A DNA stretch of 64,000 bases, from the NCBI GenBank assembly GCA_016906335.1, contig JADEYG010000012.1:806001-870000 (forward strand), written 5' to 3'. This DNA comes from Novakomyces olei (taxonomy: Eukaryota). Below the pieces are notes generated by a model. The model ran no database searches. It was not told where the DNA came from and worked only from the letters and a program-made list of their open reading frames with translations. Each line of letters opens with the position of its first letter. Position 1 is the first letter of the stretch. Positions 40,012 to 49,035 of this stretch are shown here, one piece after another. Both the position numbers and the translations under genes were made by a program.

Positions 40012-40837
40012 CTACATGACGGCGGGCTCACGCCCAATGCTGGTCCAGTATTCGCGTCGGGCAGCAAATAATTCATCTGTCCATTGTAAGACGAGCTTGT
40101 TGTTAATACCATCGCGAACGCTGGTAAATTGACTCAAATCTTTTGCGTCGTTAGACTGGCGCTCATACTCGTACATTTGTACAAGCAGCTCGTACTTGTC
40201 CACGTCTTTGACGAAAAGAGCTTCTGGAGTAGTACGCGTCTCGTATTCTATAAACAAATCCATCAACTCGCGTCCACGTGCCCTATACTCAGCCGTATCC
40301 GGCAGCAGTGTGACAATGTCCTTCATCGCTTGTAGCTCACGGCAATGCTTCTCCTCTATCATCCATTAGTCTTTCGTCAGAAAATGAAGCAGGCAGCAGA
40401 AAGCCAAGTACCTTTGCTGACGCCATCGAGCGGAGTTATATCCCCCACAAGCGACTCTGCCATATCGTGTACGAGCGCTAGTCTGACGCACTTGTTGGCA
40501 TCGAGCGATGAATCCGTACTCAGCATACATATCACTGCCATTCGATACATATGGTCCGCACAAGATTCTGCCGTTAGCTAATGCATTCTATTTTGCCTTT
40601 GATTTTTATGGACTATTCCCTGCTTCTTTGAGGCTTGGCCTCTTGGCTTGTCGGGCTCGCTTCCCATCTCTTCCTGTTCAGCATACCCGGATTTGGAACA
40701 CGATGGTTAATCCAGCCCGTGCGCGGAGTCAGTTTGAGCCTCTGTATTATATTCAGAAAGCTCAAGACTGACGCTGGCTCGGACGACACGTCCGGTACGG
40801 AGGCCAATTGGCCATCGCGATGCGGCGGTACAAGCAT
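40012..40837 (-). CDS. HD-domain 5'-deoxynucleotidase (HDDC2/YGK1-like), multi-exon
   Basis: Motifs [42 protein letters not shown] and FVKDVDKYE. Confidence 0.9.
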
Positions 40838-41010
40838 GAACTCGAGAACTGCCGATTAGTTTGGTTAGCGGCGTATAAGAAATAAATAACGCAGAAATAA
40901 ATAACGCTTACAACGACAACGGAGACGATAACGCGCGCTAGTGCGCGCGGAATATTTATTGTAAGAAATACAGTAGAGTATATAAGTTTATTAATAGAGT
41001 ATGAATAAAT

Positions 41011-41085
41011 ATAGCAATAATAAATATAACAATAATAAATACAACAATAATAAATACAACAATAATAAATACAACAATAATAAAT
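41011..41085. repeat. 15-nt tandem repeat (ACAACAATAATAAAT) x~5
   Basis: Three perfect and two near-perfect copies. Confidence 0.9.
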
Positions 41086-41391
41086 ACAACAACAAGAAAC
41101 AACAATAATGAATACAGTACAAGGATGAGGCAAAATGTGGTCCGCCAAGACGTACGCTGATTGCCTTGTTAATACTGCGCATATACGGTGGTCACTTTAC
41201 TCATCTCGCGTTATGAAATGGACGACGGGAAATGTACGTGTATAAACAATCGAATAAAATTGACATATTCCTACACGAAATTGCTCTGAGAGCACAACGT
41301 ACATTGTGAGCACAGCTTTACTGCTGCCAATATACAATGTGTCGGGCGATCCGACACTAAAATACACAAGCTTGCTTACGTCACAAAAGAC

Positions 41392-44300
41392 TTATGCGTC
41401 CAAATAGTCTGCTACACTGGCAACAGAATAAATAAGCCGTGCCTGGCAAGAAGCCTCACTGGCCAGCAGCGCGATGTAGACACGCTGGGCCACACTGAGG
41501 TTTGCAGAGGCTCCAAAAGTACACCAGTCACGGTAGGAAATAGCGTGTGGACACATGCAGACTTTCTTCAAAAACGCCATGACGGAGTTGGGCACAAGCA
41601 TAGAAATTTCACGATAGTCATAGTCATCCTTCATGATCCCAAACAGCCGCTGAGCACTGTACCAAATTGCATCTCGGAACGGTGTGGAGTCCAGCTTTGA
41701 CACTCCCAAGTCTCGGCCCACCGAGTCAAGTGCCGGTTTGGCTGCACTGCTCCTGGCACTGGCCAAATCCTCCATGGCTGTGAGATCGTCGAGTGCCTCC
41801 ATGGCATTATGAAACTCGCGTTCAAACAGCTCGTCCATCTGTGGGATGTAGCGGCCAATAATAGCGGAAGCTTGATCTTCCCAGCTGTACTCTCCAAGCT
41901 GCAGTATATCCTGGTCACTGCTCTTTGAAAAATAGCGTCCATTACCGGCCAAAGCGTCCGCCTCTAGTGGACTGCGTGGCACGTATCCCCTGGCAGTGTA
42001 CCTCGAGGCATCTTGCAGCATAATCCCCACTGGCCTATCATCCGCATTTCTGCCTGCACGATCAGCTGTACCCAGTGTCGAAGCGGCCGCTGCCCTTCGA
42101 CGCAGACGGGGCAAAGTGCTTGATTGTAGATTGCTGCCTTCGCTACTGGCACTGTCACCTTGAAGAGTGGCACTACCACCATCAAAATCAGCACCCGTTT
42201 TGCCTGTTTCCAATCGCGATAGCTGAGCAAGCGGTGAGGCAGTTGACGGAGCCGATGTGGAAGTAGTAGGAGCCACAGGACTCGCAGCAAGTGCAGAAGC
42301 GGGTGCTATAATACTACAACTGCCATTGCCATTGCCACTGCCAATGCCTCCAGTGCTCTTACCCTCAGCGTTACTCCGTGGCGATGGAGGCCGACTCGAT
42401 GTTTGCAGCTCGCCTGTTCGCGAGTCAATGCACTGCTCAAAGCTGTGCAGACGGTTAATCTCTCTCATCGATCCAGTCTGCTCTGCTCCATTAGCTTTGT
42501 CACCACACCGAGCCAGACGCGCCCGGAGCAAATGCTGCAGGGAAAGGTACTCGCCTGACTGAGCACTGTCGTTATTATTGTCGTTGTTATTGTCGTTATT
42601 ATTGCTGCTACTGCTGCTGCTGCCGTTATTGTTGTTATTGCTACTACTACTACTGCTGCCGAGCCCTTGTCCCTGGACGCCGTAGGCAAAGGCGTCCACG
42701 AACGAGGGCACAGTCAGTTTTGCCAGTGGCGAGTGACGTATAAGGCTGTCGTAAAGGTTCTGTGAGATTTGGTTGCGTACTTTATAGCTCGGATGGAACA
42801 GGTCCTTGGGCCTCAAGGAGCCAAGCTCCTGTAGCCAGCGCAGTTCAGAATCAATCGTGTTTGAGTCCTGTGGTGGCAGCGAGGCAGGAGCTATAGCGGG
42901 CGAGCGTACACACGACCCTCCAAGGGTATCCGCCTCTGGAACTAGGGCAAAAGACAGAGCCTGCTGGCACCGGGCAGAGAAGAAGCATACACAGGCCATT
43001 GCCTGGACTAAGGCAGCCATTGTCCAAAACTCTGTACTATCCTTGGGGCCAGAGTTCCCATGCAACAGTTCACGGACATGCTCCCTGCGAAAGCCCCAGG
43101 GACACCGGATAAGCAGAGGCAGGTAAGGCGCCAGGCGACGGAACCTGGACGGAGCGTGATCCAGGCCTTTGAGCCACTCACACTCTGCAACAGTGGCACT
43201 TTCCTCAAAAAAGGCCGATAGCAGGGAAAGATAGTACTGGCAAGACATTACACTGGCCGTCATTATGCCCAGGTAAAGCTTGTAGGCCAGTGGCAATGGG
43301 CCATTGTTTGAATGGATGAGCCACTCAAACGTCTCGTAAACGCTACCAAGGTATCTCGGGAAATACGCCAGCATTTTACTGATGTTTGTAACTCGACCGT
43401 ACTGCAAAAACGACCGGATAAACAGCCGCGTCAAGTCTGGTCCTGCTCTCCACCTTGGGCCCACGATTCCGGAGGGCACACTCGTGCCCAAAGTGGCAGC
43501 TCGACGAGGCGAACTGTCCTGCCTCGCCCGTCTCTTGTTCGCCATTGATTTTCCCTTGGCATTATAGCTATTGCTATTATTCATATTATCGCTGCCCTGC
43601 TGGTACGAGCTAAATGGTGTTCGTGAAAAAGCAAATAGCGGACTGGGCTCCGTTATCCGCGACTGTGACTGCTGACGGGTCATGTTTTTAGCATTGCCCG
43701 TGGGCCTGAATGCGGAGGCATTAAAGGAAGAGCCGCTATTAAAAGTCACTGCTGTGTTAGGACTCTCATTCATGTCCCTCGTAGAGCTTAGACCAGACCG
43801 GCCAGAGACATTGCTCCGAGTCCTTGTGGATATTGGGATAGCAGAGGAAGAAATTGATCGGGCATCCGTGTCCTGCGCTGCCATTTCAAGTGCTGGACTC
43901 GGTGTGCTTTGGAGAGAGTAGGAATCTTCTCCTTTTCCGTCTCCTTCTTCCACCATACTAGCTTCCTCATCTGCTTCGTCTTCCACGTCTTCTTCCTCGT
44001 CTTCATACATTTCAATTTCCTCGCTATTGCCGCTAAAATCGCTCAGCATGTCCAGCGAAAACAGGGAACTGTCGTAAACCGCCGACCCTGGGCCAGGGCT
44101 CTGTCGGTTTCCCACTGAAGGCCGGCTGCCAAAAGACGCCTTGCTGCCAAAGGAGAACGATGAAAATGAATCTGAAAAAACAGAGAGCCGACGAGGTTTA
44201 CGTCGCCGTTTTGAAGAAGTGCCTACATTTGTCGCAAACCCTACAACCTCTTGCGGCGCAATAAAACAACTGGGAGAAGGTGAAATTAAATCAGGTGCAA

Positions 44301-45360
44301 AATTAACAACTTGCCGAAGTCGACGCAATTGACTGCGACAGCATCGTCTTACATCAGCATAAGGGCAGTCATTGCTCAAGTTTAAAGCTCGCAGCATATA
44401 TGCCCCGAGCAATTCTCGCCGGGCCGATTGCTCCTCAATATTATTGGCAGCTGGATCGTTCTTCATTTCCTCTTCCAACACCATTTCGTCAACGCCATAG
44501 GGACCAATTGATCCGAGTGTCGTACTCTGATAATTTGTAGAGCCATTAAATCTTTCGTCGCCCGCCAATTTAGATCTAAACTGAACTCCCGCAATAATAG
44601 GAGTTCCCTCATTGTTTAGGCCAGAAAGGTTTGAAAACGAATCGTTTGGCGATAAGACGCTGGGCGACTCTAATCTAAATTTTGCCAAATTCTCTGCATT
44701 TTCTGCATCTTCTTCTACACTAAAGACTTCGTCCCAGGGAGAGTCACCTGATGTAGGCTGCTGCTGTTGCTGTTGTTGTTCTTGTTGCTGTTGTGCTAGC
44801 CGGCCGTCTTTACTAGAATTGTAAGCAGCATTGGCAGTTTGTGGAGCACGTGTTGAAGGCGATGGAGCAGGCCGAGGAGTTTCTGCCTCCGCAATAGCCG
44901 CTGGACGAGAGTTGGGGGCTTTTGAAATCAGACTACGCCAAGCCTGGTTTCCGTACAGCGTGCGAATCAAAGACTCGAGGAGCTGAGATAGACTTTCAAG
45001 AGCATTGCGCCGTAGTGCAGGGTCATCAGTCTGAAGGCTATTGAATATGCATAATTGCGCACGGCTAGCATGAATATAGTCGAGCAATTGGCTAGACCCT
45101 AGACATATTTAATTGTGGAAACAACAAAGAAAGGATGAAACGTCAGAAGAAAGCAATCAAATAAATTAAATTAAACAAAAACAAATAAATATATAAATAA
45201 ATAAATAAATAAATAGATTAAACAAAATTAGCAAGAACGATGAATAAAATAATACAGAGGGTAAACACGATTTGGAAAATTAAATAAAATGCTTACGCCT
45301 TCTAGTCGGCCGGTGCCCGCTATCACGAGCACTGCCACTAGGTTTGGCCGGTTCAAACAT
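41392..45360 (-). CDS. Sestrin (PA26 family) with long low-complexity insertions, about 1260 aa (2 exons)
   Basis: N-domain GRVTNISKMLAYFPRYL..GPLPLAYKLYLGIMTAS..CQY..EWLKGL..APSRFRRL..PW..WTMAALVQA. C-domain YSWEDQ..FRDAIW..FGIMKDDYDY..FLKKVCMCP..EASCQARLIY. Exon 1 (ATG 45360, MFEPAKPSG...) splices in phase through a GTAAGC donor to an acceptor near 45100. Confidence 0.9.
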
Positions 45361-46363
45361 GCAAAGAAATGACTTTCGGCCTCGCAATAGTAAGGATACT
45401 CCAGCAAAAAATGAACCTTAGTGTACAAAAATAGCCCCAATATATAATCAAGTCAATACTTTTAGTAGTAAATACGCGGGTAATATTCACGGACGTAATA
45501 ACGTTGCGCCCAAAAGGAGAATTTCTTGCTAAAAAGCGGGTGAGACCGGTGACAGAAGGCTCTGTAAATTAGAGCGAACCTTTGACGAGAAGTTTCAAAC
45601 GACCTGCAAGACAGGGCAAAAGGAAATCACTTTTTAAAGTCTAGAATTTTCAGCGGAAAGTCAATTGAATAGCCAGCAGTAGTAGCTGCAATTGCTTATT
45701 AGGCGCAAGGTGGTGCTTTTGAATGTAAAGCCAAATAAGCCTGACGAGTCCAGACAAAGTGTTTCCGGCCCTTTAAAAATTGCCTAATACCATAAATGTA
45801 CAAACGTCTCGCAGGCACGCATTAACCAAGATAATACGAACGGTTTTGAAGCTTAGCGCATGACAGCAATTGCTGATACTGACGCTGATTTTTAAAGGTT
45901 TGGCAATTAATTACATGGCACGATGCCCGCTTGCTGATCCCCTTCGTCAACCTTTCTTGTCGGCCAAATCAAATAAAACAAAATATTGTACAGATAAATT
46001 GAACAGGAGACGCTTTAACGCCTCGTCACTCGTTGACGCCGAGATTGATGCCCCCCTTCAATCGGGACATACGGAAATTAGAGTAATGTGGAGAACTGAT
46101 CCTCACGCTCCCGAATAGATACATTATTGCTTAGTCGCCGTTTATCATGATAGCCATGGCTCAATACGTAATGCCCGGTTTATCTTGAACCATTGTGAAA
46201 TCGAGAATGTCTCAAGACTGATTTATCTTATAAACTATCATTAGTCTACTATAATCCTGCTGTTGAGATATACGTTTATCTGGACCAAGCAAGGCACGTG
46301 ACTCCGCTATTGACGATATCATCCTCAAAAGCATAGAGCCCTTTGTTGGCCTTTGCGCAAAAG

Positions 46364-47191
46364 ATGGAGGATCCATACTTTCAAGTTCGAGATGATTTAT
46401 TGCGGCAAGTGGACGATGCAAAAGTGGCATATACTACACGGCAAGAAGAAATCCGGGCTGCTAGTAATCCTGCCTCCAGCGTCGCAGTGGCAAATGCTAG
46501 TAGTAATTTGAGCTTTGCCCTCGACGCAGTACATGAGACTTTACAAGACTTGGAGGCTGCGGTAGAAGCAATCGAGCAAGATCCAGTGGCGTATGGTCTA
46601 TCTGAAGGAGAAGCCCGAGATAGACGGAAGTTTCTACACGCAATTGAAGCAGAGGCAGACGCTATGCAACGTGAATTAGCTGCACCTTATCCTGAGGACA
46701 AAAACAAGTTGCAAGATCCAAAGGCATCTTCAACTCCACCGCCTCCAAGCTATAAGGAAGACGATTTAGAAGGAGGGATTCGCGACTCTCATGCTTCTGT
46801 AATGGAGCAACAGTACCAAGATCAGCTTTTGGAAGACCAGGACCAGCAGCTTGACTCGGTGAGCCAGACAATCGGTAATCTTAGGGAACAAGCAGTATTA
46901 ATGGGCCGCGAGCTCTACGATCATAGCGAGTAAGTCGTTCTGAAGAATGTGTTATGCTGATGCATTAGATTATTGCGAGGTGTGGATGAACAGGTGGACC
47001 GGACGGGCGATAGACTACGCCGGGGCATGCGACGGCTCAATCATTTCATTAAATCAAACGAGGGTATTGTGCTTACTTTATTTTTAGATTGACTAATATT
47101 TTTTGTATTTGCAGACACCAAAAGCTCGTGCTGTATTGCCGTACTCGTTGTCGTTTTGATTATTCTGCTTGTGCTTGTCATCCTTGCATAG
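46364..47191 (+). CDS. tlg1: Syntaxin-6/Tlg1 Qc-SNARE (3 exons)
   Basis: N-terminal MEDPYFQV..L.DL..AV...DP..YGL..E...R (Syntaxin-6_N), SNARE motif QDQQLDSVSQTIGNLREQA..MGREL and a C-terminal TM (SSCCIAVLVVVLIILLVLV). Confidence 0.92.
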
Positions 47192-47673: not shown

Positions 47674-49035
47674 CTATACCCGTCGTCCGCCTGCTCTTGC
47701 ACCCGGGTCACCAGCTCGATCAATTCCACGCATAACATCAGCAAAGCGTGCTTGTGCCTCAGGATCCCTGGCACTTTGAGCTTCAATGCGTCCGTCATTC
47801 AAATCTTCACCGGTCTCATCTTCGTCAGGATCAATCCATTGGCCCTGTTCATACTCTCTTTGTCCATCGTCATCATCATCAAATGCTAATTTTGGGGTAC
47901 TATCGCCCGCTCCACGCCCGGCAATGAGTTCGTCGTCTTCATTGCTACTGCCTTCGTCTTCCATGTCTGAAAGTGTTTGGGAAATATTTGCGGGAGGCAT
48001 TTTGTGTGATGCTTTACTGAAAGTTTTTCCACCAGCCGTCGCTTTACTCGATCCTCCATCCACATTCATATCCGCCATGAGCTCATCTAGTTGGCGCTGC
48101 TTTGCCTGTGCTTGCTTCTGCTCCTGCTCAGCCCGGAGACGATCAATTTCAGGTCGGTAAACAGCGTAATATTCTTCGACTTTTGCATTTACTGTTTCAA
48201 AGAATTCATCCATTCCAGAGCCTGTTAAAGCCGATACGGAGACCACGTCCAGGTGGCGATAAAATTCTTCAAGCATTAAAGACATCGAGTTCATTAAAGA
48301 GTTCATGTATCCACTGCCCTCGTTCTCGTCAGCTTTTAAAGCAGCCTGGAAAGCTTCAAAGTCGCGCATCCACGTGCGCATAGTAGTGTCGGGAACAACA
48401 TCTGTTTTGTTAAATACAATCACGAGCGGCAGCCTCGATTTGTACAAAATTGAGCAAGCATAAAGCATGCTGGACATAAACGTGACCGGTGAAGCGGATC
48501 TTGGAGTATCAATTATATAAGCAATGCATGTTGGAAAAGAGGCCGCCAGAGTGTCGGTAATAATGCTGCCCGAGGCGGACCACTGAAAGATTTCAATCTG
48601 ACCTGGCGTATCAATAAGCACGTGTGATACTTTCTCGTCACACCGATTATCCAATATTTGTAGCACTTGATCGAATTTTGTCGTAAAAAGATTGAGCGAC
48701 GTCATTATGGCCCCGTTAGGGCCAAGATTATAATGCTCCATGACCTGATGATAATTGACGGTATCGCGAATATCGATATTTGCATGATACGGCACGTTCC
48801 TTACAGCCGGATCCAAATTCATAACGTAAGGTAACGGCGTACCGGGGGCATCTGCACTGCGAGCATACAAATGGCTAACAAGCCTCTGCATCAAGGTCGT
48901 TTTACCTTTTTTCAAGTTAAAAAGTCGACATCATTTGTTCTTCTTACCCGATCCTGCCATGCCAAGGACAATAATACAGGGCGGTTTATCCGTGTTTGCC
49001 GCGGAACCGGCTGCCGTAGCGTCCGGCGTCGCCAT
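47674..49035 (-). CDS. npa3: GPN-loop GTPase 1 (Npa3/GPN1) (2 exons)
   Basis: Motifs [36 protein letters not shown] and NKTD, with an acidic C-terminal tail. Confidence 0.95.

Follow-up and report, generated by a model that had tools for sequence, protein, structure and literature searches.

In animals, Sestrins dock on the GATOR2 complex to restrain target of rapamycin complex 1 (TORC1). The review PMC11429811 gives D406/D407 and S190 (human numbering) as needed for GATOR2 binding, E451 and T374/T386 as needed for leucine binding and C125 as an antioxidant site, and names the electronegative DDYDY hinge of the C-terminal half, SESN-C, as the defining feature of Sestrins. For fungi, published papers state that homologues of the sensors were "lost in fungi" (PMC10245982), that conservation of Sestrins does not extend to fission yeast (PMC7857730), and that Basidiomycota are without Sestrins while Yarrowia lipolytica has a Sestrin-like protein (PMC11429811), the latter known here by name only. 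The Sestrins of Mucoromycota, Glomeromycota and other early-diverging fungi are discussed in PMC11836306, and the literature treats those as expected. Here we describe a Sestrin gene on the minus strand of a 64-kb stretch of DNA (64,000 nucleotides of contig JADEYG010000012.1; hereafter the window). We consider it probable that the gene is the intact Sestrin orthologue, inherited vertically, of an ascomycete that branches deeply and is likeliest of Taphrinomycotina grade; its product would dock on SEACAT/GATOR2 to restrain TORC1 and is probably not gated by leucine.

A full-text literature search returned no paper discussing the Sestrins of Taphrinomycotina, Orbiliomycetes or Pezizomycetes, although the figure or supplements of PMC11836306 and PMC11429811 may list them. 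In sequence databases such proteins are present. The closest sequence that we found is a PA26-domain-containing protein of Saitoella complicata (XP_019021367.1 / ODQ50254.1, 986 residues; Taphrinomycotina), 39% identical to the window protein (E = 2e-58), and Taphrinomycotina also hold a homologue in Protomyces lactucae-debilis (XP_040724388.1 / ORY80500.1, 661 residues). Proteins of about 1022-1024 residues from Orbilia oligospora, O. javanica and Arthrobotrys (A. flagrans and A. conoides) are annotated "Sestrin-1". An initial annotation of the window had presented the gene as retained in a lineage where it is not expected, and had allowed that Sestrins proving widespread and already described in this clade would undo its case. 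The first point was overstated, since deposited and named homologues occur in Saitoella (two species), Protomyces, Orbilia/Arthrobotrys, Discina and Trichoglossum, and PMC11429811 mentions Yarrowia. As for the second, Sestrins of this clade are indeed described at the level of database annotation ("Sestrin-1", "PA26-domain-containing"). The window gene is a further, unusually divergent member of the Sestrin family in a phylum whose members have already been deposited and named.

A complete two-lobed Sestrin fold is predicted

The initial annotation had recognised both halves of a Sestrin in the frame and proposed a search with Pfam PA26 (PF04636). The match was clear: the protein scored 193.8 bits against a gathering cut-off of 29.4 (E = 6.9e-57) in two stretches, the better of them at residues 561-742 (residue numbers of Sestrin features follow our protein P0001, in which, for example, residues 10-57 correspond to 45081-44938). 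Among PDB sequences, phmmer matched human Sestrin-2 alone (five distinct sequences, best E = 2.6e-30). The N-terminal half (residues 561-746) aligned with residues 64-241 of human Sestrin-2 and the C-terminal half (residues 1137-1236) with residues 382-479.

A 46-row alignment served as input for an AlphaFold2 model of residues 209-1238 (mean predicted local distance difference test score, pLDDT, 63; predicted template modelling score 0.66). Ordered parts were residues 219-296 (pLDDT ~90), 549-738 (94-98), 854-898 (78-88) and 1023-1238 (about 90 or more), while pLDDT was below 50 for residues 305-547, 900-1021 and most of 739-853. Comparison of the model with the PDB by Foldseek revealed human Sestrin2 chains as the top matches (5dj4, 5t0n, 5cuf, 9lvj and 9lwf; E = 1.4e-13 to 6.6e-9, target template modelling (TM) score 0.79-0.87), of which 9lvj and 9lwf are GATOR2-bound cryo-EM entries. 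In the model, two all-helical AhpD-like halves (SESN-A and SESN-C) are joined by a helical linker, the arrangement that defines a Sestrin. The model thus shows what is predicted to be a complete two-lobed Sestrin fold of SESN-A, helical linker and SESN-C, with additional N-terminal elements typical of fungi.

The likeness to human Sestrin-2 lies in the fold and the order of domains, and the DDYDY, Cys-x-Tyr and PW motifs and R390 are common to both proteins; identity in the structural alignment is 13-16%. The human protein has 480 residues and the window protein 1256, of which about 540 precede SESN-A and about 285 lie between the halves, mostly in regions predicted to be disordered. The next Foldseek matches were AhpD-type peroxidases, which aligned with one half only (E = 0.057 or worse). 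Judged by its modelled structure, the window protein is a fused two-half Sestrin rather than a single-domain, stand-alone enzyme of the AhpD or carboxymuconolactone decarboxylase-like kind.

The hinge is kept and the leucine pocket is not

We compared functional positions across a 46-row alignment (A2) of 12 ascomycete-clade sequences (the query included), 19 other fungal sequences and 15 others, taking human numbering from HMMER alignments and residue roles from PMC11429811. The DDYDY hinge is exact at residues 1161-1165. In the other 45 rows, D406 is Asp in 33 and D407 in 35, and D407 is Asp in just 4 of the 11 other ascomycete-clade rows. All 46 rows have the equivalents of P170 and W171 (Pro670 and Trp671 in the query), within a centre motif that reads LIRCPW in the query versus LAHRPW. 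Also kept are the equivalents of W189 (Trp695 of WTMAAL, versus WSLAEL in human) and R390 (Arg1145). Thr replaces S190, a substitution seen in 17 of the other 45 rows. Judging from the alignment, the GATOR2-linked surface appears largely intact apart from E193, to which we return below.

The leucine pocket is different. The equivalent of E451 is Gln1208, unique among the 46 rows (Glu in 44 and Asp in one of the other 45). That of T386 is Ser1141, and that of H86 is Phe583, the fungal consensus. The TYNT lid (T374/T377) is absent, with a 21-residue insert after the lid position, and W444, which seems animal-specific, is not matched by Trp. Among the features of a metazoan-type leucine pocket (E451, the TYNT lid, T386, R390, H86 and W444), R390 alone is kept. 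As aligned, the pocket is without the key acidic residue, lid and latch of human Sestrin2. Relatives differ from the window protein at several of these positions. The Saitoella and Protomyces Sestrins keep Glu at the E451 and E193 positions, and Saitoella has EDFDY instead of DDYDY; the Orbilia Sestrin has DDYSY and Asp at the E451 position. The Sestrins of early-diverging fungi, unlike the window protein, keep the EEKCH motif and a Thr-containing lid position.

The cysteine of SESN-A raises the question of a different function. The equivalents of C125 and Y127 are kept (Cys623 and Tyr625), as they are in most of the other 45 rows (Cys in 41, Tyr in 38), PMC11429811 names C125 as the antioxidant site, and SESN-A resembles AhpD-type proteins such as 2prr (target TM 0.70, E = 0.057). 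The protein could therefore be mainly a redox enzyme or sensor, an AhpD-like peroxidase or a thiol protein acting through Cys623, with no link to TORC1. We think this improbable. The equivalent of the proton-relay residue H132 is Leu, a substitution common outside animals (Leu occupies this position in 19 of the other 45 rows, more than any other residue does, and His is outside the top five). Moreover, AhpD chemistry makes no use of the DDYDY hinge, which is nonetheless exact here while drifting in close relatives; this pattern points to a retained protein contact.

The gene is intact and is predicted to have one intron

Between 45108 and 41392, the minus strand carries a stop-to-stop frame of 1238 codons that ends in a TAA stop at 41392-41394. 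Its earliest in-frame ATG is at 44484. Upstream of this ATG are N-terminal blocks that fungal homologues conserve, and a start upstream of 44484 is therefore required. If translation starts at 45360, an intron is needed to reach the 1238-codon frame. We infer a two-exon model with a 198-nt intron (Table 1). The acceptor AG of this intron is at 45100-45099, a GCTAAT branch-like site occurs at intron position 65 with no further AG up to the CTAG acceptor, and an AAAT-type tandem repeat occupies 45158-45227. Joined in frame, the exons encode 1256 residues with a single, terminal stop. Given the predicted intron, this agrees in length and at both ends with the reading frame of about 1260 residues at 41392-45360 in the initial annotation. 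A hidden in-frame intron within the inserts was considered and dismissed, as the frame appears open throughout.

Public reads gave a consistent picture. Contigs from a second study's run (X2) matched the gene with 0-1 other letters in the eight pieces listed, spanned 41288-41684 with 0 other letters, and included the parts that encode unusual residues. Since the second study's run contains identical pieces, the gene is not an assembly artefact. A further run (X3) covered small parts of the gene only. In the source run, contigs had even depth over the gene, with short breaks at repeats only. Over the poly-Gln CAG/CAA and Ser/Asn-coding repeats (44703-44863 and 42449-42770), the summed depth of contigs from X2 and X3, both metagenome-like runs, reached 5341; because these repeats are common to many other organisms, depth there is uninformative on the gene.

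N-terminal blocks and disordered inserts

Two conserved helical blocks precede SESN-A. In an AlphaFold2 model of residues 1-300, both had pLDDT 85-97, with disorder between them. Compared with the PDB, this model gave no fold match at E <= 0.001; the best matches were HEAT-like alphaRep hairpins with E of 2 or more.

The first, block A, has an R..AL..L pattern followed by an aromatic residue and precedes the PA26 region in long fungal Sestrins (for example P0003, P0004, P0005, P0016 and P0022). Its two helices (residues 5-25 and 30-63) were modelled at pLDDT 87-97. Among 152 Sestrin sequences, 29 were matched by a hidden Markov model (HMM) of block A, with 33 domain rows in total; each of the 29 is a long form, and the named carriers are fungal: ascomycetes, Glomeromycota, Mucoromycota and Blastocladiomycota. 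Block A is without a Pfam model, and its match to Pfam HEAT was sub-threshold (E = 0.33). From these comparisons, it may be an undescribed fungal Sestrin module. The second, block D, has six invariant residues in the fungal Sestrin alignment A1 (D247, C248, P249, R254, P279 and S280). With its HMM we obtained 91 domain rows from the 152 sequences. As these include short, non-fungal Sestrins, block D is a family-wide N-terminal element.

The initial annotation had also noted low-complexity inserts rich in Ser, Asn, Gln and acidic residues before and between the halves, and these are borne out (19-21% Ser, with a Gln run and an acidic run). Together the long inserts make up about 500 residues and are predicted to be disordered. 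A 12-nt tandem repeat lies within the linker insert at 42567-42604. The inserts are the largest among the 11 long fungal forms aligned (1238 residues versus 881-1064).

Table 1. Features of the Sestrin gene, in order of transcription (positions in the window)
Feature	Position	Strand	Description
Exon 1	45297-45360	-	64 nt: ATG, 21 codons and 1 base, phase 1; predicted from sequence
Intron	45099-45296	-	198 nt, GTAAGC donor, T-rich, CTAG acceptor; predicted from sequence
Exon 2	41392-45098	-	3707 nt including TAA stop; open frame
Block A, helical hairpin	44938-45081	-	residues 10-57; fungal Sestrin alignment A1
Block D	44221-44454	-	residues 219-296; two helices, DCPY.DVR then PS.FI; pLDDT ~90
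Disordered insert 1	43468-44196	-	residues 305-547; 21% Ser, acidic run, pLDDT <50
SESN-A, N-terminal AhpD-like half	42895-43464	-	residues 549-738; PA26, human Sestrin-2 alignment, pLDDT 94-98
Cys623 in CQYY	43240-43242	-	within SESN-A
WTMAAL	43009-43026	-	residues 695-700; within SESN-A
Linker insert	42550-42894	-	residues 739-853; Ser/Asn/Asp runs, 20% Ser, 15% Asn, mostly pLDDT <50
Linker helices	42415-42549	-	residues 854-898; two helices, pLDDT 78-88
Disordered insert 3	42046-42411	-	residues 900-1021; Ser/Ala/Gly/Thr-rich, 19% Ser, 16% Ala, pLDDT <50
SESN-C, C-terminal half	41395-42042	-	residues 1023-1238; human Sestrin-2 382-479 aligns, pLDDT ~90 or more
R1145	41674-41676	-	within SESN-C
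DDYDY	41614-41628	-	residues 1161-1165; within SESN-C
Gln1208, human E451 position	41485-41487	-	within SESN-C

The gene groups with ascomycete Sestrins

A HMMER search against 1.84 billion cluster representatives yielded 591 proteins at E <= 0.001, of which 310 reached E <= 1e-10 and 50 reached E <= 1e-30. As the best identity was just 39%, the searched library contains neither the window Sestrin itself nor a close relative. We looked up the organisms of 30 of the 150 representatives listed, and 17 had an organism name. The ascomycetes among those looked up were Saitoella complicata, S. coloradoensis, Protomyces lactucae-debilis, Discina (Maublancomyces) gigas, Orbilia oligospora, O. javanica, Arthrobotrys flagrans, A. 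conoides and Trichoglossum hirsutum; other fungi were Glomus, Entrophospora, Acaulospora, Umbelopsis, Bifiguratus, Dissophora, Syncephalis, Dimargaris, Sorochytrium and Paraphysoderma; and protists were Gefionella and Mastigamoeba.

We detected both Sestrin halves in 149 of 152 sequences and kept the 139 that satisfied a coverage filter. We cut out the halves with phmmer, aligned them separately, and inferred trees with FastTree from all 139 rows and with IQ-TREE (LG+C20, quick) from a subset of 45 (38 fungal-side rows and seven outgroup rows). In the latter, the query fell in a 15-row clade with all five named ascomycete rows (Shimodaira-Hasegawa-like approximate likelihood-ratio test, SH-aLRT, 94), in agreement with FastTree. 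This clade is nested in a 37-row fungal clade (support 98) that also holds the Sestrins of Mucoromycota, Glomeromycota and other early-diverging fungi, many of which carry block A. The query lies outside the clades of Glomeromycota (99) and Mucoromycota (97). The tree therefore fits vertical descent with fast change and does not fit transfer from an early-diverging fungus; the initial annotation had proposed a retained ancestral opisthokont TORC1 input, and the tree fits vertical retention of an ancestral fungal gene.

Within the ascomycete clade, the Saitoella and Protomyces Sestrins are of the long fungal form, in which blocks A and D precede SESN-A, and their inserts are shorter than those of the window protein. 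The Sestrins of Orbilia/Arthrobotrys, Discina gigas and Trichoglossum hirsutum, which are early-diverging Pezizomycotina, have the long architecture in common with the window protein and form a subclade of their own without the query (97). The Sestrin of Dimargaris xerosporica (P0138, Kickxellomycotina) joined the ascomycete clade as its sister, by a very long branch (1.67); an artefact of that long branch is the probable reason for this position.

The host is an ascomycete

The gene lies among ordinary fungal housekeeping genes. By Pfam, its neighbours in the window are IMP dehydrogenase (IMPDH), malic enzyme, a class II histone deacetylase, GPN1, a protein kinase, a syntaxin-6-like protein, an HD-domain protein, Kre9/KNH, ERG4/ERG24, Use1 and an MFS transporter. 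The syntaxin-6/Tlg1-like gene (46337-46933, plus strand) is upstream of the Sestrin gene and divergently transcribed, and an HD-domain (HD_3) gene fragment (40012-40362, minus strand) is downstream. We saw no TOR-pathway gene among the 20 window open reading frames scanned against Pfam. The IMPDH, ERG4/ERG24, kinase and Use1 frames matched only the later part of their Pfam profiles, which implies introns in many genes of this genome.

We used the GPN1/Npa3 orthologue at 47677-48930 (minus strand), 2.3 kb from the Sestrin gene, as an independent marker of the host. A search recovered 5378 proteins at E <= 1e-20 among 7999 scored candidates, and the best named matches, at 61-65% identity, were spread over the fungi. 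A higher identity was seen to an assembly protein, P0171 (68% by BLASTP; 77% over 332 tree columns), and a second related, unsampled organism is therefore present in public reads. In a tree of 44 rows (the query and 43 of the 120 matches listed), Ascomycota were split from Basidiomycota and Mucoromycota with SH-aLRT 99, and a group of Saccharomycotina and Pezizomycotina (97) excluded the query. In the best tree, the query and P0171 fell among Taphrinomycotina (SH-aLRT 80 and 90). A concatenation of Sestrin and GPN1 (eight taxa, 763 columns) joined the query to four ascomycetes with support of 100/100. Together, these trees give good support to an ascomycete host, as the initial annotation had supposed from the surrounding genes. 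On our reading of the sequence comparisons, the host appears to be without a close relative that is both sequenced and annotated.

A foreign gene or contig, whether acquired by horizontal transfer from an early-diverging fungus or carried by a non-ascomycete contaminant, might be suspected, as no known Sestrin is more than 39% identical, matches from Mucoromycota and Glomeromycota rank second and third by E-value, and topology tests on GPN1 leave a position at the base of Ascomycota unrejected. We regard this as very unlikely indeed. The Sestrin tree places the query with ascomycetes and outside both of those clades, and GPN1, an unlinked neighbour, independently groups with ascomycetes. G+C content is even over the window, its repeat-rich part excepted, and the even depth of the source run's contigs over the gene, broken only briefly at repeats, also argues against a foreign origin.

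The 64-kb window holds about 30 protein genes, many of them split by introns. Scans for Rfam families and tRNAs across it found no tRNA gene and no Rfam family at the gathering score. About 280 nt 3' of the Sestrin stop is a 15-nt A/T-rich tandem repeat (41004-41116, 7.7 copies), with a second array of two copies nearby (40878-40907). This repeat yields a spurious Cys/Ile/Tyr-repeat reading frame at 40762-41196 on the opposite strand.

Discussion

The model that we propose starts from the hinge. By analogy with animal Sestrins, the DDYDY hinge and the WTMAAL helix would dock the protein on SEACAT/GATOR2, at the WDR24/Sea2-Seh1 face, and docking would restrain TORC1 when the cell is stressed or starved. 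Release by leucine in the human manner is improbable, because the E451 equivalent is Gln, the TYNT lid is missing, the H86 equivalent is Phe and W444 is absent. Expression level, or phosphorylation of the long Ser-rich inserts, seems a likelier route of control, and the conserved Cys-x-Tyr of SESN-A (Cys623) may have a redox role.

Several observations weigh against this model or against parts of it. The E193 equivalent is Ala, unique among the 46 rows (Glu in 41, Asp in two and Gln in two of the other 45). It sits in the helix that bears the GATOR2-contact Ser190, and docking might be weakened. The query alone is without two near-invariant residues, E193 and E451, and in the Sestrin tree its branch, which arises at the base of the ascomycete clade, is the longest of that clade (1.3 changes per column). 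The placement of the host is also less firm within the ascomycetes. In approximately unbiased (AU) tests on GPN1, neither a position of the query with Saccharomycotina and Pezizomycotina (p = 0.255) nor one beyond the ascomycete stem, on the side of Basidiomycota and Mucoromycota (p = 0.26), was rejected. In the two-gene AU tests, positions with Taphrinomycotina (p = 0.372), with Pezizomycotina (p = 0.348) and at the base (p = 0.159) all stood. Taphrinomycotina grade is thus our best estimate for the host, which the AU tests do not secure. The initial annotation had called the surrounding genes Taphrinomycotina-like, and the best GPN1 tree agrees with it while these tests leave alternatives. 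Finally, as for any ascomycete Sestrin, we infer binding to SEACAT and an effect on TORC1 only by analogy. According to PMC7857730, GATOR2 in fission yeast acts unlike that of mammals, and Gcn2 handles leucine and arginine starvation. With GATOR2 wired differently in fission yeast, the animal wiring need not hold in this group of fungi.

The long branch, the unique loss of the E193 and E451 equivalents and the outsized inserts would also be expected of a relaxed or neofunctionalised relic, in which Sestrin-GATOR2 signalling was abandoned and the gene is drifting or has been repurposed, for example as a scaffold acting through its disordered inserts. This seems quite unlikely to us, as a stop-free frame of 1238 codons in DNA of 45% G+C does not resemble decay, the core domains are modelled at pLDDT 90-98, and DDYDY, PW, CQY and the R390 equivalent are all kept.

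No new kind of system is revealed here, and a PA26 query of fungal proteomes would make the gene unsurprising. Papers on TOR signalling, however, still describe Sestrins as lost in fungi, or in Dikarya. Together with the copies in Saitoella, Protomyces, Orbilia, Discina and Trichoglossum, the window gene indicates that loss in ascomycetes was patchy and repeated, not a single ancestral event. That the hinge is kept perfectly while the pocket Glu has been dropped supports the idea, put forward in PMC11429811, that GATOR2 binding is older than leucine sensing. As a more tentative extension, doubtful when all its parts are taken together, a Sestrin present in the ascomycete ancestor may have survived here and there, in Taphrinomycotina-grade yeasts, Orbiliomycetes, Pezizomycetes and Geoglossomycetes, contrary to the published view of a loss in Dikarya. 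The window would then represent an unsampled, deep ascomycete lineage whose "leucine-blind" copy, with its exact DDYDY and a Gln in place of E451, continues to gate SEACAT/TORC1 under the control of its long phosphorylatable inserts. If true, this would provide a small-genome fungal system for dissecting the ancestral, ligand-independent function of Sestrin and GATOR2.

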